Below are positions 3,562 to 63,352 of a stretch of 64,000 nucleotides of DNA, piece by piece (position 1 is the stretch's first letter; each line of letters begins with the position of its first letter). Position numbers and translations under genes: made by a program. This DNA comes from an uncultured virus (IMG/VR IMGVR_UViG_2811995017_000004) (Duplodnaviria > Heunggongvirae > Uroviricota > Caudoviricetes): positions 1 through 64,000 of IMG/VR virus record IMGVR_UViG_2811995017_000004; one strand, 5' to 3'. A model generated the notes under the pieces. That model was given only the letters and a program-made list of their open reading frames with translations, ran no database searches and had not been told where the DNA came from.

Positions 3562-4045
3562 TTCATATCATCCCTTTTAATTAGTTTATTTAAAAGACCG
3601 ATTTTATCTAATTTTTATTTCACCTTATTTAAATTAAAAGACAAGTGTAGTGTATCCAATAAACTGTATAGTGACTTAAGAAATTCTTCGCTGCATTCTT
3701 GAATAAGAATAAAATATTCTTCAGTCGTCCGATTAAAAACGAAAACTATTCTAATCAATAGAACACCCCTCCCCAAATCACAGAAATTAAATTTCATTAG
3801 AATGAAGAACTTGATATCCTGTGTTTCTGAATCTGTTAAGTTCAAATCTGCAGCATGATCCATGCTGTTGTAACCATGAATGCTCAGCTCCTTTTAAGCT
3901 TGTAGATCTAACTGTACCAATCTTCAACTACACCAATACTTTATAATTGTTATACTATAATGAGAACCCCATTAATCATTAAAAACTGGTAATACAAATG
4001 TTGTTTTAGACTTTCGAATACATACTAATAACTGGAGGTTTATTT

Positions 4046-5140
4046 ATGACAAGCTACTCAAAAACTATAAGTCACGATTTACAAGGTGTAACCAAATTAT
4101 TAATAGAAGGACGAACTTTACCTAATTATGCGTCAGGCCCCGTATTCTCTCTTTTTCGTGATATATGTACAATTCTTTACGAAACAAACAAAGTATTAAA
4201 AGAAGAAGGGGTAATTCATTCAGATTTACCGAATATGGATATAATTAAAGAAATCCGTCATAAAGTAAAAACTAATCAAGGTAGGTTAAATAGGGAAATT
4301 TTCAACAAACTCCTAAACGGACATAGAAATATTTTTGGTAGTGATATAGATAATCTAGGCTTTTATCTGGATAATGATATTTTAGCCAGCAGTACACTAT
4401 TTCCAACCTTCGTTTTCGCTGGCACTCCATTGTTTAATCAAAACCAATTTGATAAAGAATTTTTCTCTAATTTCATACCTTTTATTGGCTCATTGACAAG
4501 CAAAATTATCAATATTATTAATCAGCCGCTCGATTTATACTCAAACCAGTTGATCATTCGTGATGCAAAGGAATATAGCAACAAGGATATTTGGGACAGA
4601 AGATTCTTTAAAGAAGACATTACATATAATATATTCTTAACTCGACTTCTCCTTATTCAAAATGAGCTTACTACCTGCATATGGGTGGAAAATCACTTGG
4701 ACTATAATTCACAAAAGTTTAACCTTGATAAATACATATTATTACGTTTAACATCCATAAAGTTATATGAGACAATGCGAAACATATTAGATATCCGAAA
4801 CCGAAAAGAACTCAAACAACATTGGAAAGCTTTCAATTTTAACACCTTAGATACTTTAATTGAGAAGTATGAAAGCACACTTCAAGATGAGATGAAAACT
4901 CTAAGAGATATGCTCCATTATGACAACAAGGGAGTTAATTTTTATGATTATATTGAACAAAAATTTGATGAAGATTCTAACTACCCGGATGAATTAATCA
5001 AAACAATATTTAATGATTATATCCATATCATCAGGAATGCAATCTCAGTTAACATCAACATTCAGTCTTATGAAAGCATGACTGATACTGAGAAAATCAC
5101 TCGCAGGTCAAAAAGTTTTTCAAATGAATCATTTAATTAA
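4046..5140 (+). CDS. 364-aa hypothetical moron protein, possible HEPN-like defence protein
   Basis: Long ORF opposite to its neighbours with a GGAGG RBS. Helical composition with LRDMLHY near the C-terminus. Confidence 0.8.
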   Translation: MTSYSKTISHDLQGVTKLLIEGRTLPNYASGPVFSLFRDICTILYETNKVLKEEGVIHSDLPNMDIIKEIRHKVKTNQGRLNREIFNKLLNGHRNIFGSDIDNLGFYLDNDILASSTLFPTFVFAGTPLFNQNQFDKEFFSNFIPFIGSLTSKIINIINQPLDLYSNQLIIRDAKEYSNKDIWDRRFFKEDITYNIFLTRLLLIQNELTTCIWVENHLDYNSQKFNLDKYILLRLTSIKLYETMRNILDIRNRKELKQHWKAFNFNTLDTLIEKYESTLQDEMKTLRDMLHYDNKGVNFYDYIEQKFDEDSNYPDELIKTIFNDYIHIIRNAISVNINIQSYESMTDTEKITRRSKSFSNESFN

Positions 5141-5165
5141 TGTTCATTGACATATGAGATTATAT

Positions 5166-5222
5166 AATGCAACAAAGATAGATAAAGTTTTTTATTATAC
5201 TCATTTATCTTTGTTGCATTTT
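5166..5222 (+). terminator. 15-bp perfect inverted repeat after the 364-aa gene
   Basis: AATGCAACAAAGATA ... TATCTTTGTTGCATT. Confidence 0.6.
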
Positions 5223-5337
5223 AATGGCTGACATAAATAACATTATCATAATCTCATCATGGTCTACATAAATCTTTTATTTTCTAACTCGATCTTTCCA
5301 TTAAGAGTCCAATTCTAATTAAAATTAGAATTTCATT

Positions 5338-6150
5338 TCAAATCTCAAAGGTTTTGACCTCAAACTCTTCATTACCTGGTATCTCGTTTACACTCGGATA
5401 CTTATCGTAGTCGTATGGATACCTAATACAGTTCATGTGAAAGCTTGTCACCTCATGATTAAACTCAGTTTGCAAATGTTCATGCCCACAAATCCAATGT
5501 TTAGCATTAATGAATGGTACATCGACCATATAGCAGCTATTAGGTTCAAATGGAGAAAAAGGATTATGAACAGGAGGGACATGAGAAACAAACACATCGA
5601 TGTGAGTTTTTTCGAGCGTTTCATACCAATCCATCGAACCTTTCCACATTGCTCTTACTCCATCTTCCTTACTGTAACCATTAATGCTAATGTAGTTTGA
5701 GTCATTAGAGACTCCTTTGAAGAAATCCCATCCTTCAATCCCTTTTGGTAAATACCACATAACATCTCCTGCAAAGACTTTCCCTTTGAAAGTATCCGTT
5801 GACTTGATTAACGGAGTCACATTCTTTATGTCATCAGCCTTTTTGATTAAATCATTCACCCTTCCCAATGAATCAGAGTATCTTCTTTTTTGGTTTTTGC
5901 TTAGTATATAAAGATCATGATTTCCATATGTGAAGTAAACCTTCTCGTATTGTTTTGCTACTTCATCTAAAACCCAAATGGCTTGCTGATTCCATTCAGT
6001 AAAATCACCAGCAATGATTAATACCTCTCCATTACCGTTTGAAATTAGTCTCTTAACAAGCTCCCTTGTTCGCTTCTCCCATTTGAGTTGGTTATTATTC
6101 CAAGGAATCCAATGATTGATATGGAGATCTGATACATAGTCAATTTTCAT
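5338..6150 (-). CDS. yotB: Calcineurin-like metallophosphoesterase
   Basis: SDLH, AGD, GNHD, SHVPP, GHEH motifs. Confidence 0.9.
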
Positions 6151-6196
6151 TTTATCCTCCCATTTTTCATCATGAACAATTAAAATTTGTAAACGT

Positions 6197-6225
6197 GTAT
6201 AAATTTAAATAATACTTCCATAATA
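6197..6225 (+). promoter_or_regulatory. sigmaG-type forespore promoter of the SASP gene
   Basis: GTATA-N17-CATAATA. Confidence 0.7.
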
Positions 6226-6271
6226 TAATTCGAACAAGTTTGATTACATTACACTTTAGGAGATGATTTGT

Positions 6272-6472
6272 ATGGCACGCAACAATAATAATGAATTACT
6301 TATTCCAAATGCTCAGTCAGCTATTGAACAAATGAAGCTTGAAATAGCTCAAGAGTTTGGTGTTCAATTAGGTGCAGAGACTACTTCAAGAGCAAATGGT
6401 TCAGTTGGTGGAGAAATTACTAAACGTCTTGTTCAAATGGCTCAACAACAAATGGGTGGACAATTACATTAA
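6272..6472 (+). CDS. sspC: alpha/beta-type small acid-soluble spore protein
   Basis: [10 protein letters not shown]...[18 protein letters not shown] signature; followed by a GAGGGG-TCAT-CCCCTC hairpin. Confidence 0.95.
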
Positions 6473-6733: not shown

Positions 6734-7183
6734 CTAAATCACCTCCGTCCGGCTGTCGTCGATGATTTTTGCGTGTTTGACAGCAATAGATGTAAGCGCG
6801 GCTCTTCCGCCCCCTGTTGGTTCACCATCGGCAACTACAGTCGCATACTCAATCGTTTTATAGAATCCGCGGTAAGCGACAACATCTCCCACACGAACCT
6901 CAGTCGGCTGCGGTGCGTTAAGATATTCGTCAGGTACTTCGAGTCCAAGTGCGCGATGGAGAGCGATGGCTTCTCCGATATGAACGTTGAAGCAGTCGTT
7001 CGGTGCGGCCTTGGCGATTCCTCTGCGGACTATGTTCGTACATCCTCTCAGCTTTCTCAAAACCACGACGGTTCTTTTTTCGGTGTTTACGATGAATTCG
7101 TGATCATGTCCGATGTCTCTTTTGAGTAAACCCGATACATCCGCCTTCGCCTTCGTAATTACCGGCCTTTTAATTTCGCTCAT
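6734..7183 (-). CDS. Hypothetical phage protein (GC-richer segment)
   Basis: AAGGAGG RBS; GIAKAAP.DCFNVHIG.AIAL motif typical of Bacillus phage hypotheticals. Confidence 0.75.
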   Translation of the reverse strand: MSEIKRPVITKAKADVSGLLKRDIGHDHEFIVNTEKRTVVVLRKLRGCTNIVRRGIAKAAPNDCFNVHIGEAIALHRALGLEVPDEYLNAPQPTEVRVGDVVAYRGFYKTIEYATVVADGEPTGGGRAALTSIAVKHAKIIDDSRTEVI

Positions 7184-7195
7184 CTTAGCGCCTCC

Positions 7196-7579
7196 TTATA
7201 CTGAGAATGCCTCGTATATCTCCCGGATCTCTTTTGATAATTCCGTATAGTCCGTCTTACTTTCGTCCAAAGCTGGCAAGCAATCCGCGAGCATTTTAAT
7301 AAGTTTAACGTTGTATTCGTCGCATTCTTCGTATAGATATTTGTGGAATTCATCGGAAGCCTTCATCCGCTCGACCGTTTGCTTTACGAGGTCTCTTACG
7401 CCCTCCGGATAAGCTACCGCATATTCGAGTGTGCCTTCCTCGAATCCGTAATCTTTCGGCAGCATATCGCGAATAGCCGCGAGTTCTCTTGCCCAGCGCT
7501 CGTTTTCTTCCTTCAACCGCTCGTTTTCCGCAATCAATTCGGCTATGGTACAGCGTAGGTCTGCGATTTCGTCCGCCAT
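7196..7579 (-). CDS. Hypothetical coiled-coil phage protein
   Basis: GGAGGTG RBS; ORF track. Confidence 0.75.
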   Translation of the reverse strand: MADEIADLRCTIAELIAENERLKEENERWARELAAIRDMLPKDYGFEEGTLEYAVAYPEGVRDLVKQTVERMKASDEFHKYLYEECDEYNVKLIKMLADCLPALDESKTDYTELSKEIREIYEAFSV

Positions 7580-7599
7580 GTTTTTTCACCTCCATTGGT

Positions 7600-7851
7600 T
7601 TATTTGTCTTTCTTGATTTGTTTAACATAGAATTCTTTGTAAAATGATTTATCGCATCCACATACAGGGCACACTTCGATCCTTTCATCAAAACCATCGT
7701 AATCCATGACTTGCTTATAGCTTGGTTTCTCGAATAAATGTCCTTCATGACACATATAAACCTTTTCAGAATCATCTTCTGTGACAGAGATGAATATCAA
7801 TGTTAAAGAAATAAGAATTAGAAAAAAACAAACCACCTCTCGACACCCCAA
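7600..7851 (-). CDS. Hypothetical Zn-ribbon protein (start uncertain)
   Basis: C.EGH and CPVC motifs. Confidence 0.55.
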   Translation of the reverse strand: MGCREVVCFFLILISLTLIFISVTEDDSEKVYMCHEGHLFEKPSYKQVMDYDGFDERIEVCPVCGCDKSFYKEFYVKQIKKDK

Positions 7852-8238: not shown

Positions 8239-8364
8239 CTGATCACCCCTTGAATCAAAATAAAATATTAGTTTTATTCAGTTTTCACTTTTAATTCGTT
8301 TGTTAATTGTTAAAAAAATGACCCCCTATGAATGAAATAAGAGCAAGCCTCTCGGCTTACTCCC

Positions 8365-8393
8365 ATTATATCCTTTTAATTTGTTTAAGTCTA
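8365..8393 (-). promoter_or_regulatory. sigmaA promoter with the conserved spacer element
   Basis: TAGACT-taaacaaattaaaagga-TATAAT. Confidence 0.75.
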
Positions 8394-9565: not shown

Positions 9566-9606
9566 TTTGCACCTCCTCAATAATTACGATAAAAGTCTTC
9601 TTTTAT

Positions 9607-11113: not shown

Positions 11114-11160
11114 ACCATCACCCCTTTTAATTCGCATTAAAATTACCATTTTATTTAAAT

Positions 11161-12992: not shown

Positions 12993-15900
12993 TTAAACTA
13001 CACAAGACAAGCAGCCTTCCTGCCCCGTGTCCTTTGTCCGCGCATAATACAGCGTTTTGATGCCGCGATGATGCGCATACAAGTCAATTCGGTTCAGATC
13101 ACGCGTCGTCATCGTATCCTTCAGGAACAGCGTAAATGAGATACCTTGATCAACGTGCTGCTGAATTGTCGCAATCATATCGACGACTTTAAACATATCC
13201 ATGTCGTACGCTTCCTTATAGAAGAACCAATTCTTCGCACTAAGTCCCGGCATCGGATAATACGTCTTGGAATTTCCGTATGTCCGTTCCTCTATGCGCT
13301 CCATAATCGGCATGACACCTGCTGTTGAAGATTGAACATATGAGATGCTTCCTGTAGGTGCTATTGCTTGTCTATATGAGTGATACAAACCATATTTCAT
13401 CACATCTTTTTTAAGCTGCTTCCAATCTTCAATTGTTGGAATATGCTGATCTCCAAACAGTTTTTTTACCTTTTCGAACTTTGGACTAAAGCTTTGTTCT
13501 TCGTATTTCTTGAAATACTCACCTGATTTGTATGTAGAGCCTTCAAACTGGTAATATGTTTCCCCGGTTTCTTTGGCGATTTCCATTGAGCGCCCAAGGG
13601 AATAATAGTTCATCATCATAAAGAAAGTGTTGGCAAAATCTCTCGCTTCTTCGCTCTCATAGGCGATGCCATTTTGAGCTAAGAAACCATGTAGATTCAT
13701 TGCTCCAAGTCCGACTGACCTCATAAGCTTATTTGCCTTAGCAACTGCTGGAGCATTTGTAATATTGGTTTTATTCGATACATGAGTCAATGCATCAATA
13801 GCTAATTTGACTGTATTCTTAATTGACCCATTCTTCATTACGTTGAAGATATTAATCGAGCCTAGATTACATGAAATGTCCAAGCCAATTTCGTCCTCTT
13901 CGCCATAGTCTGTATACGTTGATACTTGGGAAGCCTGAAGGACTTCTGAACAGTTACCAGTTACAATTCCATTAAAAATTAGAGAATGATAATCTTCTTG
14001 TGTTGTGTCATAGACATCCTCTACCCCATCTTTTTCAATGCTGATAATTTCGGCTGTGAAATCATGTTTTGGCTTTCGTGATTTTGCTTGCAATGTTTCA
14101 GTCAACATGTTGAATTTGTACTTATCATATTCTTTCAAATCAACAATGCTCATGAACAATTCTCTTGACGCTCTGTCTTGAATGCTAAGCTTATGAGTTG
14201 GTTTAACTTTGTATAATTTGGAACCGCCCCGGCCATCAGGGAGAAGCTCCTGTGAGCGTTTGTTATTGGTATAAATGGTTGTATATACTCCCATATTAAT
14301 GAGTAACTTTTGCACATCTTGCAAACTCTCAAAATCAACTGATGTTAATTCAATTGTTAGTGCCTTCGCTTTATGATTGGCATTTACACAACCATCCGTT
14401 TGAAATAATCCAGACAAATAAGCTGCTTGTGTTTCCTTATCAGCTTGATATAAGAACTCTGGAACTCTTGTTTTTGTTTCTTTTGTCATTCCATATTTAT
14501 TTAAAATATCAAAGAGTACTGTACTAGACATATATAATAGATCTTGTTTTTCTGGATCAGCAGCAACAAATTTTGGAGTAAAAGAAGTGTTGTGCTTATA
14601 AACACGATTAATTTTATGTTTATCAATTACACGGTGCACAGCATCTTTTACCTTCTTCTCCAACACCTTTTTATTGTCATATAAATAAATCTTCGCTGTC
14701 TTATCTGTAATTGTTCCATCCCCAGCTATAATCCCCATGATATATGCGAGGTCAGGTTCATGAATACTCCCATATTCTCCTTCACCAGACTGAATCAGTA
14801 GTTTGTCTCCCGGAACAAGTTGGTTAAGCTGAAGTTTTTGTATTTCGTTATTTCGCTTAACATAAAACTTATGCCACTCTGTTGCTCTGATTTCAAATCC
14901 TTGCTTAGTTTTAACTTTAAAGACATCTGCGTTCTTTTTAGTTAGCTGCATAGGTATCGCATTCACAATTGAAGTCCCCCTACAATCCTTGTCAAACTGT
15001 TTTGTCCGATTGTCAATAACGACCCTTAAATCTTTTTGACTTTTATATAGATCTGAGGCTTTTTCGTACCCATTTTCGGTTAAAAGAAAAGTATCTCCTG
15101 TCACACACAAATTAGAAAATTTAACCATCGAAATATGACTGTTAGCGTGGAATCGGTTTACATTGTCGGTAAACATCAGGTAAGGATAACCCGATTCTGA
15201 TCTTAAGATTGCGAGCTTTTCTAATAGTTTACGAGCATTCGCTTTTTTCTTTCTGACATTTAGGTTTTCGACCAATTCATCATACATTTTTGCAATATCC
15301 ATTTCGTCTAAATGTTGCCTGTATTCCTTATAAACTGAATAAGGATAGAACATGTAGAAGTCTTTATCTTCCCTAGCAAGTTCAATAAATTTATCTGGGA
15401 TAACTACACCAATTGATAATGTTTTTGCCCTGACATCCTCATCTGCTGAGATTTTTTTGGTATCAAGGAAGTCATTAATGTCTGGATGAAAAACATTAAG
15501 ATAAGCAGCTCCTGATCCTTGTCTTTGCAGACTATTCGGACGTGTTCGCTACAAACGCCCCGCCTTGCGGCAGCTTCATGTTACCACGAAGATTAGACTA
15601 TATCTTCATCCCATTGGGATGCCTCCTGTTTCGGCTACCAATCGCTTGTAGCCTACGGCTTTTGCCTAGTCGTTGAACGTTCCTCAAATGAGGCTTCGCT
15701 GCTGATTGTCCTATAAGGAGTTCCCAGCAATTAAAGAGGTTTTTCGATCGCCATTGCTGACGAAAGGGGCCAAATTTAACCCATCTGGTCTGCATATCGA
15801 AAAGCGTTATCGAGCAGTTTCATTACACCTACAACGCCTTTTGTAGCATTCTCAACTTTTTTAATTGGCTCACCTTTTGCTCGAATCTTGCTCAGATTAA

Positions 15901-18684: not shown

Positions 18685-18727
18685 GGGCTTTCCTCCTCTT
18701 TCTTTAAAATCATCCTTTTATCTAAAA

Positions 18728-47781: not shown

Positions 47782-47957
47782 TGCCCCTCCTTTTGGAATC
47801 TATATAGTCTTTCCAGCTGCAATTCTCAAACACTTTCATATCTGCCCCCAAATGCCATTTAAACCATACTAAGTTAAACCATGCTGTTTCCAATATGTAT
47901 TTGATGTAACCGATACTTTCATCCCCTCTTTGGATAAAATAATCCTTTTATATAATT

Positions 47958-49192: not shown

Positions 49193-49822
49193 TTATTTAT
49201 AAATCTCTAATCTTCCCCAGCAAGTTTCCCATTTAAACTTTATTCCTAGAATATTATTAATATCATCATGAAACTTATTCATCATTCTAGTCGCAAAGTG
49301 TCTTGCATCTCGCTCGCTTTTCTGTGCAAAATAGCCAGGTTGACCTCCATCTATATATTTCGAATCTTTAACGCAAGTCATAAACTCATCTTGGTAAGCG
49401 TGTCTAAGTTCATGATACAGTGTTTCGAGAATAAAGAGCTTTATAGTCTGATTGTAGCCTTTTGGATAATTGAATGGATAAATGTGAATAACCCCAAACC
49501 CATTTAAACCAACCAGTTGTTTTCTAAAGATACTTCTGATGGTTTTTAAGCAAAAAGGTGCTCCAAGTGGGTTCAAAAAATTAAGCAATGCTTGGATTTT
49601 ATTTTGAAACACAAATATTCTAATCCCTAGGTTATGATAATCCTTATGTAGCAGCTGTATACACTTCTCAATCTCTTTTGCACTTATTACAGATGATTTA
49701 TTCTCTATCAAATTACTTTTTAGGTCTACCCCCGTTATCAATCGAAAATGATCTTTATATAACCTTGCTATATCATCCTCTAAATACATCTTTACTGAGG
49801 CATTAGTTTTTTCAGCAATCAC
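49193..49822 (-). CDS. HExxH metallopeptidase-like protein
   Basis: LYHELRHAYQ...ERDA..FA. Confidence 0.7.
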   Translation of the reverse strand: MIAEKTNASVKMYLEDDIARLYKDHFRLITGVDLKSNLIENKSSVISAKEIEKCIQLLHKDYHNLGIRIFVFQNKIQALLNFLNPLGAPFCLKTIRSIFRKQLVGLNGFGVIHIYPFNYPKGYNQTIKLFILETLYHELRHAYQDEFMTCVKDSKYIDGGQPGYFAQKSERDARHFATRMMNKFHDDINNILGIKFKWETCWGRLEIYK

Positions 49823-49857
49823 TGATCTCCTCCTGTATTTAACTTAAAACTTCAATT

Positions 49858-50145
49858 TTATTTGATTTCACGCTCATGTATTGTAAAGAGGACAAATGGA
49901 CAATCATTAAAGTATGAACCCCTTTCAGGTTCTTGCACTTTAGTCGTTTGATAAAGTTCTTTAAACCTTTTTACTTCCTCATCGTTACGCAATTTTAGTT
50001 CAAAGAGAGGCATCCCTACAACGCTCACTCTTGTGTTTCCAGACCACCCCTCTTGTTCAAGTCGCTTGATTGTTTCCCACATCTCATCCAAGGAATTATG
50101 AAACACTTCTATAACCATCTTTTTGGTTTGTTTTTTAATAAACAT
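49858..50145 (-). CDS. Hypothetical protein
   Basis: AGGAGG RBS. Confidence 0.7.
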   Translation of the reverse strand: MFIKKQTKKMVIEVFHNSLDEMWETIKRLEQEGWSGNTRVSVVGMPLFELKLRNDEEVKRFKELYQTTKVQEPERGSYFNDCPFVLFTIHEREIK

Positions 50146-51528: not shown

Positions 51529-51589
51529 CCTCCCTTTTTAATTTGTTTAAAATACATCTTTTATTTAAAACGATAATTCAACCATACTT

Positions 51590-51983: not shown

Positions 51984-52012
51984 TCCTTTTTTTATACTTT
52001 TAATTTGTTTAT

Positions 52013-52968: not shown

Positions 52969-53982
52969 TTAACGCATTTTTATCCCGTCTTTAATTCCAA
53001 GTTCTTTAGCGTAGTACTTTTTAATTTCTTCTTCGTTTACATACTGTTTGATACTATATATTTTTTTAGATAAGTCATCATACCGTTCACTTCTCTTATT
53101 GATGATATGCTCATAATCCTCTTTCTCTAACTTACCCTTTTCCTTGTATATTTTATAGCCTTCATACAAAACACCCGATCTATTTATCCTTGTCGGATTT
53201 AAGAAAGGATAATCATTAACTTCTGGGGCCAGTACAGTCCTCATGGTATAAACAACAACATTAAAAGAAGATCTCTCTAAGTCTTTTTGGGTGCTTGTTT
53301 TTTTATTCCGAATAACATATTCATTATCCGCTAAGGTAAACATACTCCCTCTTGATGATTCTGAAGCTCCATTCTTGTTATGATATTTATTTTCATCCGC
53401 TGCAAGAAGGCATTCGTTTATACATTCATCGCTGACCTTGATTTCCCTTGAGCCATATTTATCATCATGCACAGTTAGGATGTTTCCGTTTTCTTTTGCT
53501 TTTAGAACATCGACTTTTTTTAAATTACGTATTTCACTACATCTATGTCCCTGAACTCCATCAAACAGCAACATAAACATGGCTCTATCCCTATGATTGA
53601 CTAAAGTGTCAATAATCCCTTCGAATTCATTAGCAGTAATATAAAGTTTTTTTCCTTCGTCTATACAATTTTTAACATCTTCAATTGTCAAATCTCTAGA
53701 CAAGTTTGTAGTACCTTTAGTTATTTTTTGATAAATCGCCCAATCAATATACTTTGTAATGTGTGACCAGCAACTCAATAAAGATGAAGTTGTAGATCTA
53801 TTCAAGAGTGTCAAATAATCAAGGATTTCATTAGAATTAAAATCATAAAGATCTTTCTTTAAAAATTTTTCAACCTCTGCTCCTCTTCTAAATATAGAAA
53901 GGATTTGAGGCACCTCTTTCTCATTGACTATTTCTAAAAATTTATTCTTTATATCCTCATTATATAATTTCATTATAAGCAC
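52969..53982 (-). CDS. yopR: Master repressor MrpR/YopR (degenerate tyrosine-recombinase fold)
   Basis: LYDFNSNEI, LLFDGV.G...SEI.NLK; RINRSG replaces HxxR; synteny. Confidence 0.85.
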   Translation of the reverse strand: MLIMKLYNEDIKNKFLEIVNEKEVPQILSIFRRGAEVEKFLKKDLYDFNSNEILDYLTLLNRSTTSSLLSCWSHITKYIDWAIYQKITKGTTNLSRDLTIEDVKNCIDEGKKLYITANEFEGIIDTLVNHRDRAMFMLLFDGVQGHRCSEIRNLKKVDVLKAKENGNILTVHDDKYGSREIKVSDECINECLLAADENKYHNKNGASESSRGSMFTLADNEYVIRNKKTSTQKDLERSSFNVVVYTMRTVLAPEVNDYPFLNPTRINRSGVLYEGYKIYKEKGKLEKEDYEHIINKRSERYDDLSKKIYSIKQYVNEEEIKKYYAKELGIKDGIKMR

Positions 53983-53990: not shown

Positions 53991-55367
53991 TTAGACATCT
54001 AACTTGGAAAAGTAATCAATCACATGTTTTAAGCCGTACCTAAACTGAACATGCTTTTTATTATTTAATACTTTTAGACTTTTCCATAGGTCGTTATCCA
54101 TGGAAAAATCAACTTTCAAAAGTGCCTTATCGATTTCCTCGGCAGATTTTGACTCCTGTTTCATTTTTACTCCTAATGCTAAAATGCCTATTATAACAGG
54201 AGACGCGGTGATTAGACTTCTTCTCTCTCTGCCAAATGAATGATTTGTAAAATCATCGATATATGAATTAAAAACAGTATTGAACACTTCCGTAAGATAC
54301 ATGCCCAACTTTCTTGCCTCAGCTAGATTATCCACTTTGTAATTTAAAGAATTGAGAACCATTTTTAAACCTGTAGTAAACCTTTGGAATGTAATGACGA
54401 ATTTTTCATTTCTAAAAATTTCATCACTATTTACTTTAATGTACTCACCTATATCACTGTTATCTCTAATAAAATTAATAATAGTTGACAGATAATCATT
54501 CTCACTCATTTCTGCAACTTTAGATTTTGCCACAGGATTGATGGTGTTTTGTTGTCCAAAATGTTTTCTCGCTTTTTTCATTGTATAGTTATACAAATCA
54601 ACTTTCAAATAAAAATCGTTAACGCTTGGATTCCTTCTGAATGCTCTATTTATACCGTTCAATCTGTGCCATCCATCAATCACATCCAATTGCGTTCCTT
54701 TAGTGACAGTTAATTTTCTTTCTTCCGGATCGAATAACAGTTCAATTCCCTCTTCTGAGCTGCCTAATAAGGCATTGAAAGTCAATACCGATTTATTTAA
54801 ATCATTTTGTTCCACTAATTTTGCAATTGCTTCAACGGAAGCATCAACGAGATCAGGAACTGGTATTTCATCTTCAATCTCTTCGATATAAAGTGTTTTA
54901 TCTGTTCTCTGAGCTTTTGGATTATAGCGCAATAGCTGTGATTCATATAGTTTATGCAGTTCACTTGCTTTAACAAGAAAAATAAAATTATCTTCTGAAA
55001 CCTTTGTTACATCTGTAAATGTATAGGGAAATGAAACCTCTTCACTCTCATAACCCTCCCAATTTAATTCCATCTCTTTAATACGGTTAGGGGGAAAATA
55101 ATTTTCAGGTGAAATTGTTTCATCTCTTGTTAAAGTATACAAATTTTTTGCAAGAAAATATTTTTCAATTGTTGTAAAAACAGCATTTGGGTTACTCAAT
55201 TGTTTAAAAAGCTCCTGCGTTTTCCCAGGCTGAAATTTATCTTTAGCCATCAAATTTCTAAAAGAAATCATTAATTTATTATCGTGTTGTATTTTTAATT
55301 TAACATCAAGTAACCCATCCATTAATTTTTTATCTGCTTCCGCATCAAAAATGATTGGAGAATTCAT
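53991..55367 (-). CDS. yopQ: YopQ-like DndB/ParB-fold protein
   Basis: RYNPKAQR and VIDGWHRL motifs; synteny. Confidence 0.85.
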   Translation of the reverse strand: MNSPIIFDAEADKKLMDGLLDVKLKIQHDNKLMISFRNLMAKDKFQPGKTQELFKQLSNPNAVFTTIEKYFLAKNLYTLTRDETISPENYFPPNRIKEMELNWEGYESEEVSFPYTFTDVTKVSEDNFIFLVKASELHKLYESQLLRYNPKAQRTDKTLYIEEIEDEIPVPDLVDASVEAIAKLVEQNDLNKSVLTFNALLGSSEEGIELLFDPEERKLTVTKGTQLDVIDGWHRLNGINRAFRRNPSVNDFYLKVDLYNYTMKKARKHFGQQNTINPVAKSKVAEMSENDYLSTIINFIRDNSDIGEYIKVNSDEIFRNEKFVITFQRFTTGLKMVLNSLNYKVDNLAEARKLGMYLTEVFNTVFNSYIDDFTNHSFGRERRSLITASPVIIGILALGVKMKQESKSAEEIDKALLKVDFSMDNDLWKSLKVLNNKKHVQFRYGLKHVIDYFSKLDV

Positions 55368-55424: not shown

Positions 55425-56525
55425 TTATAATGGTTTAACCGCGAAAAAATGTAATGCCTTTCTTAACGTTTGTTTATCACACTGCTCAAAAAAACGTAAG
55501 AATTCTTCTTTTGTAATGTCTTTCAAAATTGATACATCTAATTCTTCATCCATTATAATACCTGCAGTCTGTGAAATGTCTTTATTATCATTTAAATAAC
55601 GTAGTGTTGTGTCGAATCTGCTGTGGTCTGCTTGCTTCATTGCAGCTCTATAATCTTTCCCTGTCGCCTCAAATACTTCAGTTATTCCCACTCCTCTAAA
55701 TGAATGAGGTACTATACCTTTTTCTTCAGGTATTCCAAGTCTTTTCAATGCACGCTTTAGTGATTCTCTAAAAGCGTCTTCTGAAAGTCCTTCAAACACT
55801 CTGTCAGTGTCTTTTGTTTCTTCACTCTTTAATGCAAGTAACTGTTCATAAAACACTCTGTGTATACCTGTAGTACGCAATTTCGCTCCCTTGTCAATGA
55901 CCGTAACAATAAACCAATCCGGGTTTTCAGAAGAAACCTCAAAATCACACCATCTAACGTCCAGGGCAGCCGATATTCTGAAAGATGATCTAAGCAAAAA
56001 ACCTCCGAACAATTTTTTCAAAAGTGGTTTTTGCTTTTCATAAATGAACATATTTTCACAGATCATCTCTGCTTGAATTTGGGAAGTGTTTGCCCTAGTT
56101 CTCTTTATTTCAGGACTTCTTTTAATTTTATAGAAAGCATCATCGTCAACAAATTCAGGATACAGTCTCTTGAGCTCCGAGTGAAGCGATTTCAATGCTG
56201 CGATCTTTCGATTAATTGTTGTGTTAGCTAATCCCTTCTGTGTAAGATGGTGTTTAAATGCCAAAACATCTGACCTTTTAAAAGACAGATGCTCCTCTTT
56301 TAAAAATTCAATTTCAGTTTTACAATAAAATCTAAAGAACTGCTTTATGTCACCTAAATAATTTATTGCTGTGTTTGATTGAAGTCCGTACTTGGATTTT
56401 TTCTTTTGTTTTCTGTCAAATCCTTTAACGTTTCCGGCCAAGCTTTCGGTGTCTTTCTCTCTTAAATAAGTTAAAATATCATTAAAGACCGAGTATTCCC
56501 GGATAGATTTAACTTGAGCACCCAT
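55425..56525 (-). CDS. yopP: Tyrosine recombinase with an intact-looking catalytic set
   Basis: SFRIS (R), DKG.K, PHSFR (HxxR), DHS, TTLRY (Y); N-terminal TINRKIAALKS SAM-like domain. Confidence 0.88.
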   Translation of the reverse strand: MGAQVKSIREYSVFNDILTYLREKDTESLAGNVKGFDRKQKKKSKYGLQSNTAINYLGDIKQFFRFYCKTEIEFLKEEHLSFKRSDVLAFKHHLTQKGLANTTINRKIAALKSLHSELKRLYPEFVDDDAFYKIKRSPEIKRTRANTSQIQAEMICENMFIYEKQKPLLKKLFGGFLLRSSFRISAALDVRWCDFEVSSENPDWFIVTVIDKGAKLRTTGIHRVFYEQLLALKSEETKDTDRVFEGLSEDAFRESLKRALKRLGIPEEKGIVPHSFRGVGITEVFEATGKDYRAAMKQADHSRFDTTLRYLNDNKDISQTAGIIMDEELDVSILKDITKEEFLRFFEQCDKQTLRKALHFFAVKPL

Positions 56526-57499: not shown

Positions 57500-58690
57500 T
57501 TACATTACCATTATCTCTAAAATTTCTTTGTCTACTCCCAATTTCTCCAACTCCATTAAAGGCAGTCTACAAGAGAATTTATCACCGCTCATTTTAAAAT
57601 ACTTAACTGATTTTAAGAAATAATCTTTAGAATTTTCAACAAGTCCTTTGTAATAATAATGCAATCCCATTTCATTAGCGTCTTGCTCTAAAACCTCTAA
57701 TTTAGAAAGCATTTTTTTGGCCTGTCCAATATCCCCTTTTCTGATAAGATAATGAATAACCTCTTGTCTATCTATGATTTCCTTAGAGTCTACATTTAAA
57801 TATTTGTTTTCTTTATTCCATAAATTCTCTAAAAAACAAAGGTTTCTAATAGCAAATCGCTCATAAAATGCATCCCCTTTTACAAGTTCTAATCCTTTTA
57901 AAAAACAACTTTTAGATTTCTCATAATCAGTCATCATTAAAGAACTCCCATAGGTAAGAAACGAGAAAAAATTAATTCTTTTTACATTTGAGTTTTCCAT
58001 TCCATATTTGGCATACTCCCGTGCTTTTTCAAGCTCATTAGTTCCAAAAAAACAATTAGCTAACAACAGCATATATCTACTTTTAAATGAATAATAAACA
58101 TAATTCTCGTTCCTAATAACGTCTAAGACTACGTTCTCACTCATATCTTTAAGCCTGGTAAACTGCCTTGAAGCAAGAATGGAATACATAGGAATTAACC
58201 TTGAATAAACCTTCATTTCAAGTGATTTAGGATTAATTTCTCCCAGAATCCTTATACACTCTTCGATGCTTATCTTTCCGCAGTCGAGTTCTCTTTGGAG
58301 AGAGTATACCTTTCCCCATTCCTTACTGATTGCATTTTTAGCAGCTCTTAAGTTCTCGATATGAGTATCTAAAGTATCGTATAACTGATTTACACTTAAA
58401 TATTCTAAACCTTGTCTTGCTGCAGACTTATTAGGATCTAAAGTTAGTATGTATTCACTCATTAATTCAAATTCATTATCAGGGGATACTCTTTGAACAA
58501 CATTTATTAAGCCCTGGATGTTATCCATTTCTTTTTTATCATTAAAAATAAACTGATGAAACCCAGATGAATTAGAATATCCAGCTATTTTAGCGAGTTC
58601 TTTTTCGAGTCCTCGTTCTTCTTCACATTTGTTCTTTAATAAACTTTTCAACTCCAATTCTTTCACCACGTTTCCCCTTTTAATATACAT
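57500..58690 (-). CDS. aimR: Arbitrium receptor (RRNPP/TPR)
   Basis: N-terminal HTH, ARQGLEYL..N, TPRs, C-terminal SVKYFKMSGDKF...PL.EL; followed by aimP. Confidence 0.92.
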   Translation of the reverse strand: MYIKRGNVVKELELKSLLKNKCEEERGLEKELAKIAGYSNSSGFHQFIFNDKKEMDNIQGLINVVQRVSPDNEFELMSEYILTLDPNKSAARQGLEYLSVNQLYDTLDTHIENLRAAKNAISKEWGKVYSLQRELDCGKISIEECIRILGEINPKSLEMKVYSRLIPMYSILASRQFTRLKDMSENVVLDVIRNENYVYYSFKSRYMLLLANCFFGTNELEKAREYAKYGMENSNVKRINFFSFLTYGSSLMMTDYEKSKSCFLKGLELVKGDAFYERFAIRNLCFLENLWNKENKYLNVDSKEIIDRQEVIHYLIRKGDIGQAKKMLSKLEVLEQDANEMGLHYYYKGLVENSKDYFLKSVKYFKMSGDKFSCRLPLMELEKLGVDKEILEIMVM

Positions 58691-58692
58691 TC

Positions 58693-58721: not shown

Positions 58722-58802
58722 TTATTATTTTTAATTTGTTTATAAAATTTTAAATGCACAGAAGATCGCTCTCCCCTGCGCATCATAGGTTATATAATAT
58801 TT

Positions 58803-59030: not shown

Positions 59031-59082
59031 GAAACACCTCCAAATGACTTTAAAACAATTATTTTAAATGGATTTGTTATTA

Positions 59083-60540
59083 TTACATGTTAATTTGCGC
59101 CAACTCGAGGGCATAATCAGGAGAAACACCTAAACGAATTAGAGAGTCCTTAATATCATTTTTATCATAAGCCACGTAATCCTTGCTATAATGTTTCATA
59201 GTATATTGAATAAGCTCTATATATTCCTCTATTTTGTTTAACCTCTTAACAATTTTCTCCACAACCATTGGATTCGGCATTTCAAAACATTTTTTTGATT
59301 CGCTATTCCTTAATTGTTCCTTTATTAAACGATATGCCCATCCAATGTCTTTGTCTTCTAAGAAGCTAATTAGTTTCCAATAATGTAGGTCATTTTTAAC
59401 TTGTACGTTACTCTTCCCTATTTTGTTACCTAGAATAACAACCTCATCATAAAGGGATCTAAATCCCTCAAGTGTAAGTGTATCTAATTGGTCATACAAT
59501 ATTTTAGTTTTTATTTCATATTCTGCAGTGATTTTTCTTTGGCTTATGGTCTTCTCCTTGATATTTAATTCACTTTCTTTTTTTTGTATTCTTTCTCCTC
59601 GTTTCAGCAGTTCTTTTTCTAGACTTTTCAATTCATCTTGTTTCCTTACTATATCTTCCATCTTTTGGAATGCTAAAGTTAAAACTTGATCGGCTTTTTG
59701 TATTGGAGTAATCTCGTTATCTTTAATATTAGGAATTGCCTTGAGTCTAACTGTTTTTTCATCATTAACATTGTCATTATCTCTTATTTCTTGCTCATGT
59801 TGAAAACAATCAAGATAATAATTTTTAATAACATAGCCTTTAAAAAAGTCTTCATTTTTAAATCGCAATACATTATTCCATAAATCGTTCCCGCTATGAT
59901 CCTTTTTGAACTGAAATGGCAAGCCATCAAAAAAACGTTGAGTAATAAATATTTCACCTGGCTCAGCCATGTCTGTGTGTTTACTTGCGATATTTGCAAT
60001 TTTTCCAGCCCAAACTAAATCTTTCGACTCTTCTTCCCGCAACTTCATGCCGACTTGAGTAAGTAATACATTTCCATAGTCAATACCTATACCACATTCT
60101 ATCTGTTTCCCATTTACAGTTTCTTGGCATTTAGGGTTAAAGTAGTTGTCAATTACAGTGAGAATCGCTCTTGCAGCTTCTAAAGCTTTTTCAGTTGATT
60201 TTCTGTCTTCATCGTCCACAAACACGCCCATAACTCGATCGCCTACAATCTGTCTTACACTTCCACCACTATAATTAATACACATTACGATTGCACGCAC
60301 AAAAGCTCTATATATCTTTGCCATACTTTTAGCCCAAGAGCTATCTGATAAGCTGGTCGAGCCCCTAATGTCAACGAACAGAATTGAGCAGCTAACCACT
60401 AAACCTATATTAACGTCCTCTAGTTCCTCAACAGAAGGAACTACACCGCCATCATAATCCTGTACCTTCATTTCTGAATCAAAAACTTCACTCAGCTTAT
60501 ATTTAATTTCTTCTAACTTATCAAGTTTCCAGTTCTCCAT
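59083..60540 (-). CDS. pycC: Pycsar pyrimidine cyclase with a C-terminal coiled-coil/helical extension
   Basis: Class III cyclase motifs LFVDIRGST, GDRVMGVF, GIGIDYG, DLVWAG..AN.ASK; adjacent to a PycTM-type effector. Confidence 0.85.
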   Translation of the reverse strand: MENWKLDKLEEIKYKLSEVFDSEMKVQDYDGGVVPSVEELEDVNIGLVVSCSILFVDIRGSTSLSDSSWAKSMAKIYRAFVRAIVMCINYSGGSVRQIVGDRVMGVFVDDEDRKSTEKALEAARAILTVIDNYFNPKCQETVNGKQIECGIGIDYGNVLLTQVGMKLREEESKDLVWAGKIANIASKHTDMAEPGEIFITQRFFDGLPFQFKKDHSGNDLWNNVLRFKNEDFFKGYVIKNYYLDCFQHEQEIRDNDNVNDEKTVRLKAIPNIKDNEITPIQKADQVLTLAFQKMEDIVRKQDELKSLEKELLKRGERIQKKESELNIKEKTISQRKITAEYEIKTKILYDQLDTLTLEGFRSLYDEVVILGNKIGKSNVQVKNDLHYWKLISFLEDKDIGWAYRLIKEQLRNSESKKCFEMPNPMVVEKIVKRLNKIEEYIELIQYTMKHYSKDYVAYDKNDIKDSLIRLGVSPDYALELAQINM

Positions 60541-60550
60541 TTCCCCACCT

Positions 60551-61150
60551 CTATTTAACTAAAAACATTGTCCAAGTTCCCATAATCAAAAATAATGCAA
60601 AAAACAGTAATGACCATTTTGTAAATGACATTGCTTTTTTAAAACTTGTAAATTTTTCAGTTGCTATTTTTGAATTAATATAGACTTGTGACTCTATGTC
60701 CTGTATTAAATCTTCCTCTGATTCTAATTGTTTATTTTCTTTATAGAATTCGTTAAAACTTTTTTCTGCTATGCTTTGAAAATGCAAATTTGAATTGGCT
60801 TTAATATCATACTCAATAAAGTGGTTAGGATCTAAATTCGGTCTTAATGAATCTAAAATATACTTACTCGCAATCCCAAACAAAGAGAGAAAAACAATTA
60901 ATATTATTAAGGACAGCGATGCTAAATAAAAAATAATATTTTTATAATCGAATGCCAGCAATATCTGAGCAATCGTTTTTAGAATGTCATAAAGAAACTC
61001 ACTCGAAAACAGTACTCCTATAAATATTCCTAAAAAAGCGAGCACAAATGATGCTTTGCTGTCGCTGTTTGAAATCCAAAAGTTTATTCTATCTAAGTTT
61101 TTATATGCATCATCCTTGTTATATTTTCTTACTCTGTTACTATTCTTCAT
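60551..61150 (-). CDS. pycTM: Pycsar transmembrane effector
   Basis: WISNSDSKAS, TM helices, LRP, NLHFQSIA, QVYINSKIATEKF, C-terminal TM. Confidence 0.85.
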   Translation of the reverse strand: MKNSNRVRKYNKDDAYKNLDRINFWISNSDSKASFVLAFLGIFIGVLFSSEFLYDILKTIAQILLAFDYKNIIFYLASLSLIILIVFLSLFGIASKYILDSLRPNLDPNHFIEYDIKANSNLHFQSIAEKSFNEFYKENKQLESEEDLIQDIESQVYINSKIATEKFTSFKKAMSFTKWSLLFFALFLIMGTWTMFLVK

Positions 61151-61742: not shown

Positions 61743-62021
61743 TTATTTAACCAATACTTTTATTTCCGCGCCTTTTGCTTTAATCTTTTCTAAGATTGAT
61801 TTCATTTCCTCTTCATCTCTTGAGAGACGATCCAGACTCAATAAATATACTGTATCCCCACTCTTTAAATCGGTGATTAATTCATTGAGTGCTTGTTGTT
61901 CGTGTCTTCCAGGAACATCGTAATAGACCTTTTCGGCGCCTGCTTTATTGAGTTCATCAATATGTTTAAGCAGCATAGGTTTCTGTATCTCCATGCTCAT
62001 TCGAGTGTATCCATAAATCAT
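61743..62021 (-). CDS. Stand-alone serine resolvase catalytic domain
   Basis: IYGYTRMS, GDTV...LDRLSR; lacks helix E and the HTH. Confidence 0.8.
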   Translation of the reverse strand: MIYGYTRMSMEIQKPMLLKHIDELNKAGAEKVYYDVPGRHEQQALNELITDLKSGDTVYLLSLDRLSRDEEEMKSILEKIKAKGAEIKVLVK

Positions 62022-62042
62022 AATTTGTTCCCCCTCATCGTT

Positions 62043-62279
62043 TTAAATTTTTGTCACCGTTTCTTCTATTTCTAGCCCAGAGTTTAACCCATGAACTGTT
62101 TCTGTAATTGCAGTAACACCCTCAATAGATTTCATATACAACTCAGTGAGTTCTCTAATTTTCGTCATAGTCTCATCCTGATTTCTAATATTCAGTTCCA
62201 TTTGACACAAGACGCTATTGTCTTGATCTTTCAGTGTAACATTAAACCTTTCTAATTCAGCTTTCAGATTTTTAACCAT
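62043..62279 (-). CDS. Hypothetical protein
   Basis: GAGGA RBS. Confidence 0.65.
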   Translation of the reverse strand: MVKNLKAELERFNVTLKDQDNSVLCQMELNIRNQDETMTKIRELTELYMKSIEGVTAITETVHGLNSGLEIEETVTKI

Positions 62280-62359
62280 TTGATTCCTCTTCCTTTAATC
62301 AATAATACAAACACAATCTATGTATTCTCATTATTAATATTATACAACATAGGAAAGGA

Positions 62360-62458
62360 TTAGTACCCAAAATGTGCGAGAGATAATACAAACACTGTTA
62401 GTCCTAGACTTAAAACACCAATAAAGATCAAATTGTCTTTCCAATTTTCAATAATCAA
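62360..62458 (-). CDS. 32-aa single-TM peptide
   Basis: MIIENWKDNLIFIGVLSLGLTVFVLSLAHFGY; GGGGTG RBS, TTG start. Confidence 0.45.
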   Translation of the reverse strand: MIIENWKDNLIFIGVLSLGLTVFVLSLAHFGY

Positions 62459-62579
62459 TCTTAATCACCCCATGTAATTATTTTTAATTCGATTAAATTG
62501 GCCGTAATCATTGTCGGCTGCTGTTATGTCTGATTTATGTTTTGTTTATACTTTTAATTAGGATTAAAACGGTAATGCT

Positions 62580-63029
62580 TTATTCTTCATCGATGTAATC
62601 GTACCAAGAGTATCCGAAAGGATCATAGCCGTTAACATTTAATTTTACGCCAGCTTTTTCAAAATCATCTAATGTCCAAACAGGTTTATCTTTTAATAAA
62701 TTGTTCAATTTATCAAGCATATCTCCATTATAGTCGCCGCGAAAGCGTAGTTCATTGATTAGCTTTACATTGTCCGCTTTTTTGATAATAATTGCTGTTT
62801 CAGTTTGAAAAACTCTTCCGATGCCACTTTCAATATCTTCTTCCTCAAGGTCATACCCTGAAACATTCACAAACACTACAGCATTTTCATCTTCATGCAA
62901 TTCAAAAAAGTAGCTGAAATCATTGTTGTTTAATTTGTTTACTTCCATCAAACCTTCAATATCTTCAATCCTTTTATCACTGTTAAGCTCATTCCATTCG
63001 ATTTCAATTTTGACTTTGGGCAGTTTCAT
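62580..63029 (-). CDS. Acidic hypothetical protein
   Basis: GAGGAG RBS. Confidence 0.75.
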   Translation of the reverse strand: MKLPKVKIEIEWNELNSDKRIEDIEGLMEVNKLNNNDFSYFFELHEDENAVVFVNVSGYDLEEEDIESGIGRVFQTETAIIIKKADNVKLINELRFRGDYNGDMLDKLNNLLKDKPVWTLDDFEKAGVKLNVNGYDPFGYSWYDYIDEE

Positions 63030-63122
63030 TTTGTCTCCTCATTTCTTTGATATTGATCTGTATTTGGATTTCGAAATTTGTTATTCTTATAAAGCTGACT
63101 TTATTTTTTGAAGGTGATTTTT

Positions 63123-63302
63123 ATGGAGAAAGAGTTTGAAACAAAGGGTTATGATACTTCTATTGTCTACGACTACAAAGAATATCCAGATGCTCATCAT
63201 GGCCGATGTGACAATTGTGACAATACCTTGTTTAAAAGCTCAGTTAAGGACGGCATATTCTTGCGGGAATGTCGCCGCTGCGGGATGAAGAAGAGTATTT
63301 AA
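63123..63302 (+). CDS. Small Zn-ribbon protein
   Basis: CDNC...CRRC; AAGGTG RBS. Confidence 0.7.
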   Translation: MEKEFETKGYDTSIVYDYKEYPDAHHGRCDNCDNTLFKSSVKDGIFLRECRRCGMKKSI

Positions 63303-63352
63303 CCGCTCTTCTTCCGCTGCCTGTTATGTTAAAATGCTTCTTTTATTTAAAG

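Follow-up and report, generated by a model that had tools for sequence, protein, structure and literature searches.

The 16-bp palindrome TAAAA-N6-TTTTA recurs between the genes of an uncultured, SPbeta-like Bacillus phage (IMG/VR record IMGVR_UViG_2811995017_000004), of which the first 64 kb of 129,459 bp, here called the window, were analyzed. In our interpretation, each site is a joint at a fixed place with a label of its own, and the joints separate the gene cassettes of the accessory and early arm in SPbeta-like phages; on the basis of the sequence comparisons, this interpretation is given a probability of about 55%. The six central nucleotides of a site are found again at the same place in other phages, the genes beside them have often been swapped, and homology blocks stop at the edges of the 16-mer. 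Together, these results indicate that crossovers have occurred repeatedly inside the 16 bases, on either side of the centre.

Pfam matches group the phage with the SPbeta-like phages. The window encodes a large serine recombinase, a yotB-like phosphoesterase, a SASP, NrdI/E/F, a DNA methylase, an intein-bearing DNA polymerase III alpha, RecJ-like, DnaB-like and Sak4-like (AAA_24) proteins, YopX, YopT, YorP, MrpR (YopR), a DndB-like YopQ, an integrase-family YopP and AimR, and almost all of its genes are on the minus strand. Named phages gave only patchy matches to the window, with at most 14% cover and 79–87% identity. The comparisons covered SPbeta, five complete IMG/VR proviruses (G001–G005), a sixth provirus (G009) and a number of IMG/VR loci (L-numbers). 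The gene calls were crude, having been made with a simple gene caller, block ends are BLAST end points, and counts across genomes are not independent of one another.

Number, spacing and placement of the palindrome

The exact pattern was found 20 times in the window, compared with 0.91 expected copies (standard deviation 1.05, maximum 4), and none of 100 dinucleotide shuffles reached 20. An earlier sequence-only reading of this DNA had listed 18 exact starts, had estimated that only a few copies would arise by chance, and had proposed the shuffled control. All 18 starts were true matches, and the total is completed by two copies at 24269 and 57899, both within predicted open reading frames (ORFs). 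In the whole phage, 27 copies have the spacing of six nucleotides, whereas every other spacing from 0 to 14 yielded only 1–4. The first 70 kb contain 25 of the 27, and 25 of the 27 are intergenic according to the gene calls. A Markov model of intergenic DNA predicted 0.23 copies for the window (at most 2 in 200 simulations), whereas 18 intergenic copies were observed; the enrichment at gene junctions, which had also been proposed as a check, thus exceeds what intergenic base composition yields.

The claimed placement between a stop codon and the next ribosome-binding site (RBS) was confirmed. Either the TAA of an arm is itself the stop codon, or the stop lies up to about 10 nt upstream, and the next start codon mostly follows 17–35 nt downstream of the site on the coding strand. 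At the site starting at 9590, for example, these distances are 1 and 24 nt. Because the arm provides the stop of the upstream gene and the site precedes the next start by this distance, a cassette consists of spacer, RBS and gene. Some SPbeta sites sit between convergent or divergent genes. No intergenic copy was present in the replication operon (24.4–36.6 kb) or in yopPQR, as the sequence-only reading had also stated.

Two of its descriptions were correct only in part. Eight of the nine near-copies that it had named have one mismatch (the one placed at 48954 starts at 48953), while the ninth, at 6530, has two and was not recovered in the list. One-mismatch copies were only weakly enriched (30 compared with about 22 expected), with 21 intergenic copies compared with 10–24 at other spacings, which indicates that the motif is nearly all-or-none. 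The near-copies at 5320, 19108, 44557 and 45535 carry centres that are exact sites in relatives. The extension of the arms, on the other hand, exists on the upstream side, with A at −1 in 22 and T at −4 in 19 of 23 sites, but not on the mirror side, where T at +16 occurred in 8 of 23. The upstream flank on the coding strand reads AAAWTTARA, and the flanks are thus asymmetric.

The palindrome is a trait of the SPbeta-like family. SPbeta has 34 copies, compared with 0–3 at other spacings, G001–G005 have 24, 24, 38, 34 and 26, compared with 0–1 for a reversed control pattern, and G009 has 25. In 35 loci around yopP homologues, the count was 319, whereas four other spacings combined gave 53. Only 0–1 copies were present in four complete proviruses of about 48% GC, which have single genes in common with the window phage at about 95% nucleotide identity. 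None of the 34 sites is annotated as a repeat in the GenBank-derived SPbeta record, and one lies within an annotated stem-loop. No published description of the palindrome was found in the SPbeta/Spbetavirus literature, a search that did not extend to the genome paper of Lazarevic et al. 1999. The distinctive and apparently undescribed feature is the use of position-specific 6-bp labels.

The centres are specific for a position

The 207 sites of seven genomes have 98 distinct centres, and no centre was repeated within any genome. Identical centres were found in 197 cross-genome pairs of sites, compared with 12.4 expected by chance from position-specific base frequencies (maximum 26). All 197 pairs were collinear, in all 21 pairs of genomes. 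To assess the kinship of the flanks, each neighbouring protein was compared by tblastn with the 700 nt next to the partner site. Both flanks were related in 49 of the 197 pairs, only the upstream flank in 35, only the downstream flank in 49, and neither in 64. A stricter comparison of the nearest genes by blastp yielded 25, 33, 27 and 112 pairs for the same four classes. Only 12 of the 54 centres seen in at least two genomes were represented exclusively by pairs with two related flanks.

One example is TAAAAGATGCATTTTA, which occupies a syntenic place in five genomes and has different sequences on both sides. A search of IMG/VR with this 16-mer had 119 stretches, of which 80 were fetched and 78 were usable. 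The upstream family U1 was joined to the downstream families D1, D2, D3, D8 and D9, and D1 was joined to eight upstream families; 26 stretches were singletons on both sides and probably represent chance matches.

When both flanks were homologous, the centre had been kept in 23 of 26 pairs. In these 26 pairs the centre had 0.019 mismatches per site, compared with 0.112 and 0.085 in the adjacent 20 nt on the two sides, flank rates that may be inflated by nearby block ends. Occasionally, a gene is found in another slot: a gene that follows the centre CAACAA at 69.7 kb in G004 follows TTCTAA at 133.6 kb in G005 (86% identical). In summary, the centres are, as far as genome comparison can tell, slot-specific and collinear, and not interchangeable.

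Homology blocks end at the sites

Assembled contigs from RNA-library runs gave an initial indication: when contigs of relatives were aligned with the window, several joints coincided with copies of the motif. Such contigs cannot show transcript ends and served only as a lead to structural variants, which was then confirmed in genomes. The sequence-only reading had claimed that pairs of sites bracket whole units, and it had proposed that the breakpoints of gains and losses in relatives be compared with the motif. Bracketing was indeed observed: in locus L004, the gene at 49193–49822 has been replaced exactly between the sites starting at 49170 and 49845, and both sites were kept. In L025, the only block shared at 92% identity is site-gene-site (49863–49164), with flanks that are about 72% identical or unrelated.

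A 1-kb unit between the sites starting at 45558 and 44557 is present or absent among relatives. The window has the order [TAAAA TCGTCA TTTTA]-1 kb-[TCAAA TAGTTA TTTTA]. In L006, the unit is missing, and a single perfect site, [TAAAA TAGTTA TTTTA], joins the same outer flanks. This is a hybrid site, and the crossover lies in or at its left arm, no resolution being possible inside identical arms. In L005, the TCGTCA site is present and precedes a different unit of 809 bp, which diverges right after the right arm. The junctions in L005 and L006 therefore place crossovers on either side of the centre, and the breakpoints of gain, loss and replacement in the relatives fell at or inside the 16-mer.

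Next, all gene junctions of the seven genomes were compared, and a junction was counted as broken when a homology block of another genome ended in it. Of the 124 motif junctions, 39 were uninformative, and 65 of the remaining 85 were broken. The 814 non-motif junctions included 291 uninformative ones, and 197 of 523 were broken (odds ratio 5.4, p = 2e-11). Non-motif junctions with a gap of at least 25 nt were broken in 130 of 265 cases, and those of them within 2 kb of a site in 99 of 171 (odds ratio 2.4, p = 0.004). These tests show that the odds of a break are higher with the motif, but that a break can also occur in its absence.

The ends were concentrated at the edges of the palindrome. 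Left block ends were at −2 to 0 of the 16-mer in 27 of 68 cases and right ends at +15 to +17 in 24 of 70, whereas ends at +4 or +11, which would be expected if the centres differed, were few or almost absent. A set of 17 sequences that was analyzed earlier, and that overlaps in part with the seven genomes, had 520 unique ends, of which 43 were within 3 nt of a site; these positions comprise 3.2% of the intergenic bases.

The sites of the window

The sites are given without a strand, with their centres on the coding (minus) strand. The putative joint at 3591–3606 is an exact copy with the centre TCGGTC, which is collinear in G002–G005 and SPbeta; among the 15 cross-genome pairs of this site, 11 have no related genes on either side. 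At 5320–5335 there is a degenerate candidate with one mismatch (one arm TGAAA) and the centre TTCTAA. In SPbeta, G004 and G005, this centre belongs to an exact site that follows yotB. Exact copies follow at 8261–8276 (CTAATA, from the comparison of centres) and 9590–9605 (GAAGAC, common to G001, G002, G003 and G005). The slot between these two has 1313 bp in the window phage and 2352 bp in G003, with 0% aligned. The exact copy at 11138–11153 (TGGTAA, common to G001) is followed by AATTAAAAG, the core of a second repeat described below, and so is that at 17245–17260 (TCATAA), where a homology block of G009 ends 4 nt beyond the site. A G009 block also ends 4 nt beyond the exact copy at 18705–18720 (GGATGA), which is common to five genomes. 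The predicted degenerate joint at 19108–19123 (GTTTTA, one mismatch) is an exact site in G002, G004, G005 and SPbeta, and the exact copy at 22391–22406 (TATCTC, comparison of centres) lies upstream of an N6/N4 DNA methylase gene.

The exact copy at 24269–24284 (GAGCCA) lies within a predicted ORF of 108 aa and is probably genuine, judging from the collinearity of its centre with G001 and G009. Its equivalents in SPbeta (111029) and phi3T (101606) lie within the annotated 5′ part of yorM, a 3D-domain gene. The annotated start of yorM may be too far upstream, and the window ORF is weak. One MrpR peak has been ascribed to yorM (PMC10516654).

Beyond the replication operon, exact copies are found at 39691–39706 (CTGTCA) and 41457–41472 (ACAATC, from the comparison of centres and slots). 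The slot from ACAATC to CTGTCA has 1750 bp in the window phage and 3158 bp in G009, with 17% aligned. The exact copy at 42779–42794 (CAGAAA, comparison of centres) precedes a AATTAAAAG box. The probable degenerate joint at 44557–44572 (arm TCAAA, centre TAGTTA, one mismatch) is an exact site in G001, G002 and G005, and an exact copy follows at 45100–45115 (GCATGT, slot comparison). Two sites are close neighbours: 45535–45550 (GATAGT) has one mismatch and is exact in G003, G004, G005 and SPbeta, and 45558–45573 (TCGTCA, followed by a AATTAAAAG box) is the site at the edge of which the blocks of L005, L006 and L007 end exactly.

Block ends of the same three loci and of G009 mark the exact copy at 47935–47950 (GGATTA). 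Its edge (47950) is exactly where the L005 block begins; the L006 and L007 blocks begin 4 bases beyond it (47954), and the G009 block ends 1 nt beyond the site. The slot from AGACTG to GGATTA has a length of 1219 bp in the window phage, compared with 307 bp (G009) and 198 bp (G003), and 0% could be aligned. The 16-mer at 49170–49185 (AGACTG) recurs between different flanks in SPbeta, G003, G004 and G009. The slot that connects it to the exact copy at 49845–49860 (TTGAAG, from block and slot comparison) has 659 bp in the window phage and 785 bp in SPbeta, with 0% aligned, and it is 99% aligned with G009. The exact copy at 51548–51563 (GATGTA, slot comparison) again precedes a AATTAAAAG box.

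The match at 57899–57914 lies within the aimR gene. It is absent from G009, although the surrounding 7.5 kb align fully, and thus it is probably a chance match. A 9.9-kb block of G009 ends exactly at the edge of the copy at 59051–59066 (TAATTG), and the exact copy at 63330–63345 (GAAGCA) is common to G001 and G009. Between these two sites, the minus strand (59083–61150) encodes a Pycsar-like defence pair, in which a PycTM effector comes after a protein with a nucleotide cyclase domain. The content of this slot differs in G009 (4263 bp in the window phage compared with 2745 bp, 12% aligned).

YopP and its neighbours

The candidate enzyme is encoded by the yopP homologue at 55425–56525 (minus strand), a member of the tyrosine-recombinase family (Pfam PF00589, E = 4.9e-7). 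Its residues R183, K212, H274, R277, H301 and Y310 align with the catalytic positions of IntI4 and Cre, in profile matches that are weak (E = 0.03–0.2). PDB sequence searches with YopP alone yielded nothing or noise. The sequence-only reading had called YopP catalytically intact; all six canonical positions are indeed present in this phage, but most relatives have Lys at the position of Arg-II. All records with the motif also contained YopP (5 of 5 and 35 of 35), and it was absent, together with the motif, in 4 of 4 proviruses of 48% GC that share other genes. The sites extend over about 70 kb to the left and right of yopP, and none adjoins it. In PMC8612738, YopP is described as a XerC-superfamily domain protein with a role that is not known, and yopP is transcribed in lysogens (bioRxiv 10.1101/2021.11.22.469490).

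The neighbouring yopQ homologue (53991–55367, minus strand; Pfam PF14072) encodes a DndB/ParB-like protein and is called ParB_N_Srx in PMC8612738. The homologue of yopR/MrpR/SroF, the master repressor, is at 52969–53982 (minus strand) and matches the Pfam families MrpR_C_cat and MrpR_N_CB.

A second repeat and the repressor box

The master repressor MrpR/YopR binds SPBRE, a 15-bp element, with 10 peaks at about ten promoters in chromatin affinity purification sequencing (ChAP-seq; PMC10516654). In SPbeta, this element appears as ...ACAAATACAAAWAATATGTATA..., and the string common to 9 of the 10 published target promoters is AATATGTATA within ...ACAAATACAAA...; both are unrelated to the palindrome. 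The phi3T homologue SroF binds an asymmetric box of 24–26 bp as a monomer (bioRxiv 10.1101/2025.11.27.690993). An identity of the palindrome with the SPBRE/SroF operator was rejected, and the proposal of the sequence-only reading that YopR might bind the palindromes does not fit the published site, which is a different, long and asymmetric box.

A second repeat, ATAAACAAATTAAAAG, was found in the window phage. It is strand-specific: of the copies of its core AATTAAAAG in the phage, 30 are on the minus and 6 on the plus strand. Examples on the minus strand are those at 8373–8381, 21125–21133, 24402–24410, 37187–37195, 51997–52005 and 58728–58736. The repeat is often located at sigma-A-like promoters, either upstream, within the spacer or a short distance downstream, and at seven sites AATTAAAAG follows the palindrome after 4–8 nt. 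It is probably the repressor box of this phage, the equivalent of the SPBRE/SroF box. A YonO promoter was also considered for the palindrome and rejected, since YonO initiates transcription of the late operon from one site only (PMC5467207).

Proposed mechanism and alternative explanations

The strict dyad with its fixed 6-bp spacing suggests that the palindrome would be read on double-stranded DNA by a paired protein. The core-site geometry of tyrosine recombinases was found, that is two inverted arms, a central region of 6 bp and enrichment of N6 only, and the crossovers map to the borders of this region as far as the identical arms allow them to be resolved. A protein-guided, site-specific exchange with this geometry and a 6-bp overlap is the most probable mode, although at somewhat less than even odds; YopP would be the prime candidate enzyme and a host Xer recombinase the second. 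More specifically, YopP, perhaps together with the ParB/DndB-like YopQ, might synapse the sites of two related genomes in a natural form of recombinase-mediated cassette exchange, a proposal that we regard as tentative and rather doubtful. With the centre as overlap or address, a resident prophage would exchange genes with superinfecting or co-resident kin, each gene keeping its slot. Matching centres would confine a complete exchange to the same slot, and single-strand exchange between unlike centres would lead to rarer insertions, deletions and relocations. The integron-like shuffling that the sequence-only reading had suggested was not borne out: no folded site of the attC type and no single attI beside the integrase were found, and the centres are slot-specific and collinear.

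Several observations weigh against the sites being labelled joints or against YopP being their enzyme. When only one flank was shared, 48 pairs had identical centres and 40 had different ones, so that centre identity is not required. Mosaic boundaries are frequent without the motif, as the 99 of 171 broken neighbouring junctions show, and isolated identical islands of 17–40 nt occurred 608 times without and 107 times with the motif, many of the 608 being repressor-box repeats or chance matches. The single genes shared with the phages of 48% GC have no site at their boundary. The replacement that distinguishes phi3T from phi3Ts, described by Dragos et al., spans the interval between the polymerase gene's stop and the yorP start (101429–102694), and neither end has a site. 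In laboratory hybrids of SPbeta and phi3T, 15 of 16 recombination sites were in ordinary homology, and one non-homologous junction was described as 'following yosA' (Dragos et al.). The invariant arm of the palindrome has only 5 bp on each side, with weak and asymmetric outer flanks. Known tyrosine-recombinase arms are longer, about 9–13 bp per monomer. At the position aligned to Arg-II (277), 27 of 35 YopP relatives have Lys and 4 have Arg, and in 4 the HSF.G string is missing. In G003 (C1:60609–61585; loci L102 and L103), yopP is split into two overlapping frames, yet this genome has the most palindromes, 38. An AlphaFold model of YopP from a 6-row alignment reached a predicted local distance difference test (pLDDT) score of 47.5, with the catalytic domain below 50, and was too poor for use.

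A different explanation, nearly as likely as site-specific exchange, is that the palindrome is primarily an operator or architectural site of a dimeric phage DNA-binding protein (for example an Xre-type helix-turn-helix protein, YopQ or an HU-like protein) that controls or insulates small early genes. Exchange would then be a by-product of general recombination by the Sak4-like YorG, the RecJ-like YorK and host RecA, acting on the only shared sequence, as at the promoter early stem-loops (PeSLs) of T4. A dyad of two 5-bp arms around six nucleotides is typical for helix-turn-helix dimers, the distance of 17–35 nt to the next start is fixed, the TAA of the arm is used as a stop, a AATTAAAAG repressor-box-like element follows seven sites after 4–8 nt, and Sak4-like and RecJ-like genes are present; the Lys at Arg-II in most YopP relatives also counts in favour of this explanation. 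Regulatory motifs that serve as exchange points have a precedent in the PeSLs (PMC2839356, PMC4122927). However, binding to the arms would leave identical, collinear centres amid unrelated flanks unexplained, and likewise the low mismatch rate of the centre (0.019 compared with about 0.1 in the adjacent 20 nt of the 26 pairs, where the flank rate may be inflated). Furthermore, 16 bp are short for homologous recombination, and no promoter-like or terminator-like signal was found on nine sites in 41–52 kb, where the number of promoters equalled chance. The ChAP-seq peaks of MrpR, only 10 in number, are at SPBRE (PMC10516654). For MrpR/YopR/SroF itself, stoperator-like silencing of early operons is the least probable of all explanations, and the published ChAP-seq and crystal data largely refute it. 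Four of the 10 SPbeta MrpR peaks are near a palindrome, and many sites in short intergenic gaps of lytic operons would resemble the stoperators of L5; but the 15-bp MrpR motif is unrelated to the palindrome (PMC10516654), the SroF box is long, asymmetric and monomer-bound (bioRxiv 10.1101/2025.11.27.690993), and 10 peaks stand against 34 palindromes.

Two further explanations were judged improbable, the second even more so than the first. If the sites were targets of a site-specific phage or host nuclease or nickase that recognizes the palindrome, breaks would turn them into recombination hotspots. Bipartite nuclease sites are similar to strict palindromic arms with a free centre, the crossovers were mapped to the palindrome, and the phage family encodes HNH and LAGLIDADG endonuclease domains. 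No candidate enzyme is tied to the motif, though, about 30 self-cleavage sites would need protection, and conserved slot-specific centres would not be explained. An RNA-level signal, that is a hairpin or protein-binding site in the polycistronic mRNA with a role in processing, stability or translation re-initiation, would agree with the position between stop codon and RBS and with flanks that are asymmetric relative to the direction of transcription. In silico folding of 12 sites, however, yielded only 0 to −4.5 kcal/mol, 11 of the 12 folded no better than shuffles and one had a z score below −2, and no Rfam family matched the palindrome. In addition, the arm sequence is conserved and does not co-vary, some SPbeta sites are between convergent or divergent genes, and the mapping of crossovers and the collinear centres would remain unexplained. 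Taken together, the interpretation as labelled joints remains the one to which we assign the probability given above.

Further observations

Apart from the palindromes, two group I introns were found on the minus strand of the window, at 15574–15788 in the gene for the large subunit of ribonucleotide reductase and at 27029–27357 in the DNA polymerase III alpha gene. LAGLIDADG domains in both intron-bearing genes suggest inteins or homing endonucleases. A 92-aa ORF at 61743–62021 (minus) contains only the N-terminal part of a serine-resolvase domain and is possibly a remnant.

The provirus G009 (164.5 kb; loci L092–L097) contains blocks that are 95–98% identical to the window phage. Its left part contains genes of the phage group of 48% GC, and the record may be a tandem or chimeric prophage. 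Proviruses of about 46–50% GC (L008, L009, L044–L051), which lack the motif and yopP, have single genes that are 91–96% identical in DNA to those of the window phage, which has 35% GC. Examples are the genes at 7138–7605 and 46046–46381, and the homology begins at the RBS or the start codon. This sharing is gene-sized transfer between unrelated phage groups.

Significance and comparison with known systems

The mosaicism of phages raises the question whether it stems from random illegitimate recombination followed by selection or from exchange at dedicated joints. The 16-bp palindrome is a sharply defined candidate joint that is easily mutated, and it is present in the tractable Bacillus subtilis/SPbeta system, in which double lysogens and hybrid phages are routine. 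If the centres are addresses, accessory genes for defence, counter-defence, toxins and metabolism could circulate among large temperate phages with the gene order unscrambled. YopP and YopQ would gain a function, and natural orthogonal sites would become available for engineering.

The PeSLs of T4-type phages are also short, conserved intergenic motifs in the variable accessory regions of a large phage, and they mark boundaries of insertion, deletion and replacement as exchange points between unrelated sequences (Arbiol et al. 2010, PMC2839356; Comeau et al. 2014, PMC4122927). In contrast, a PeSL consists of a sigma70-type promoter and a terminator stem-loop and acts through homology (PMC2839356), while the palindrome is a 16-bp dyad without such signals or a stable fold, and each copy has its own conserved, collinear 6-bp centre. 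The pdif sites and dif modules of Acinetobacter plasmids share the inverted arms around a 6-bp centre, and multiple copies in accessory regions flank discrete adaptive genes that are mobile between replicons (Mindlin et al. 2019, PMC6449649). They differ in that the element carrying the palindrome is a phage, the candidate enzyme is phage-encoded, and the centres are position labels. The arms of dif have about 11 bp and are bound by the host XerC/XerD, whereas 5 bp per arm are invariant in the phage palindrome.

Heterospecific lox or FRT sites likewise have identical arms and different spacers, and their exchange is limited to matching sites with position and orientation kept. However, cassette exchange with lox/FRT is engineered and uses 13-bp arms and an 8-bp spacer, the enzyme of the palindrome is only a candidate, and palindromes with different centres also exchange (40 of 88 one-flank pairs). 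The phage cassettes resemble those of integrons in being promoterless single-gene units in one orientation that are bounded by recombination-type sites, and the YopP profile weakly matches the integron integrase IntI4 (E = 0.029). Integrons have folded attC sites of 57–141 bp and a single attI beside the integrase, and the array is read from a common promoter. In contrast, the phage sites have 16 bp and no stable fold, they are spread over about 70 kb, and the cassettes mostly stay in their slot. The SPBRE/SroF box is a repeated intergenic element of the same phages that sometimes adjoins the palindrome, but its sequence is different, and it is asymmetric, measures 15–26 bp, binds its repressor as a monomer and occurs at about ten promoters (PMC10516654; bioRxiv 10.1101/2025.11.27.690993). 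In summary, the comparison suggests that the sites, while being neither integron nor PeSL nor SPBRE, would work most like PeSLs, pdif-flanked dif modules and, in their logic, heterospecific lox sites.

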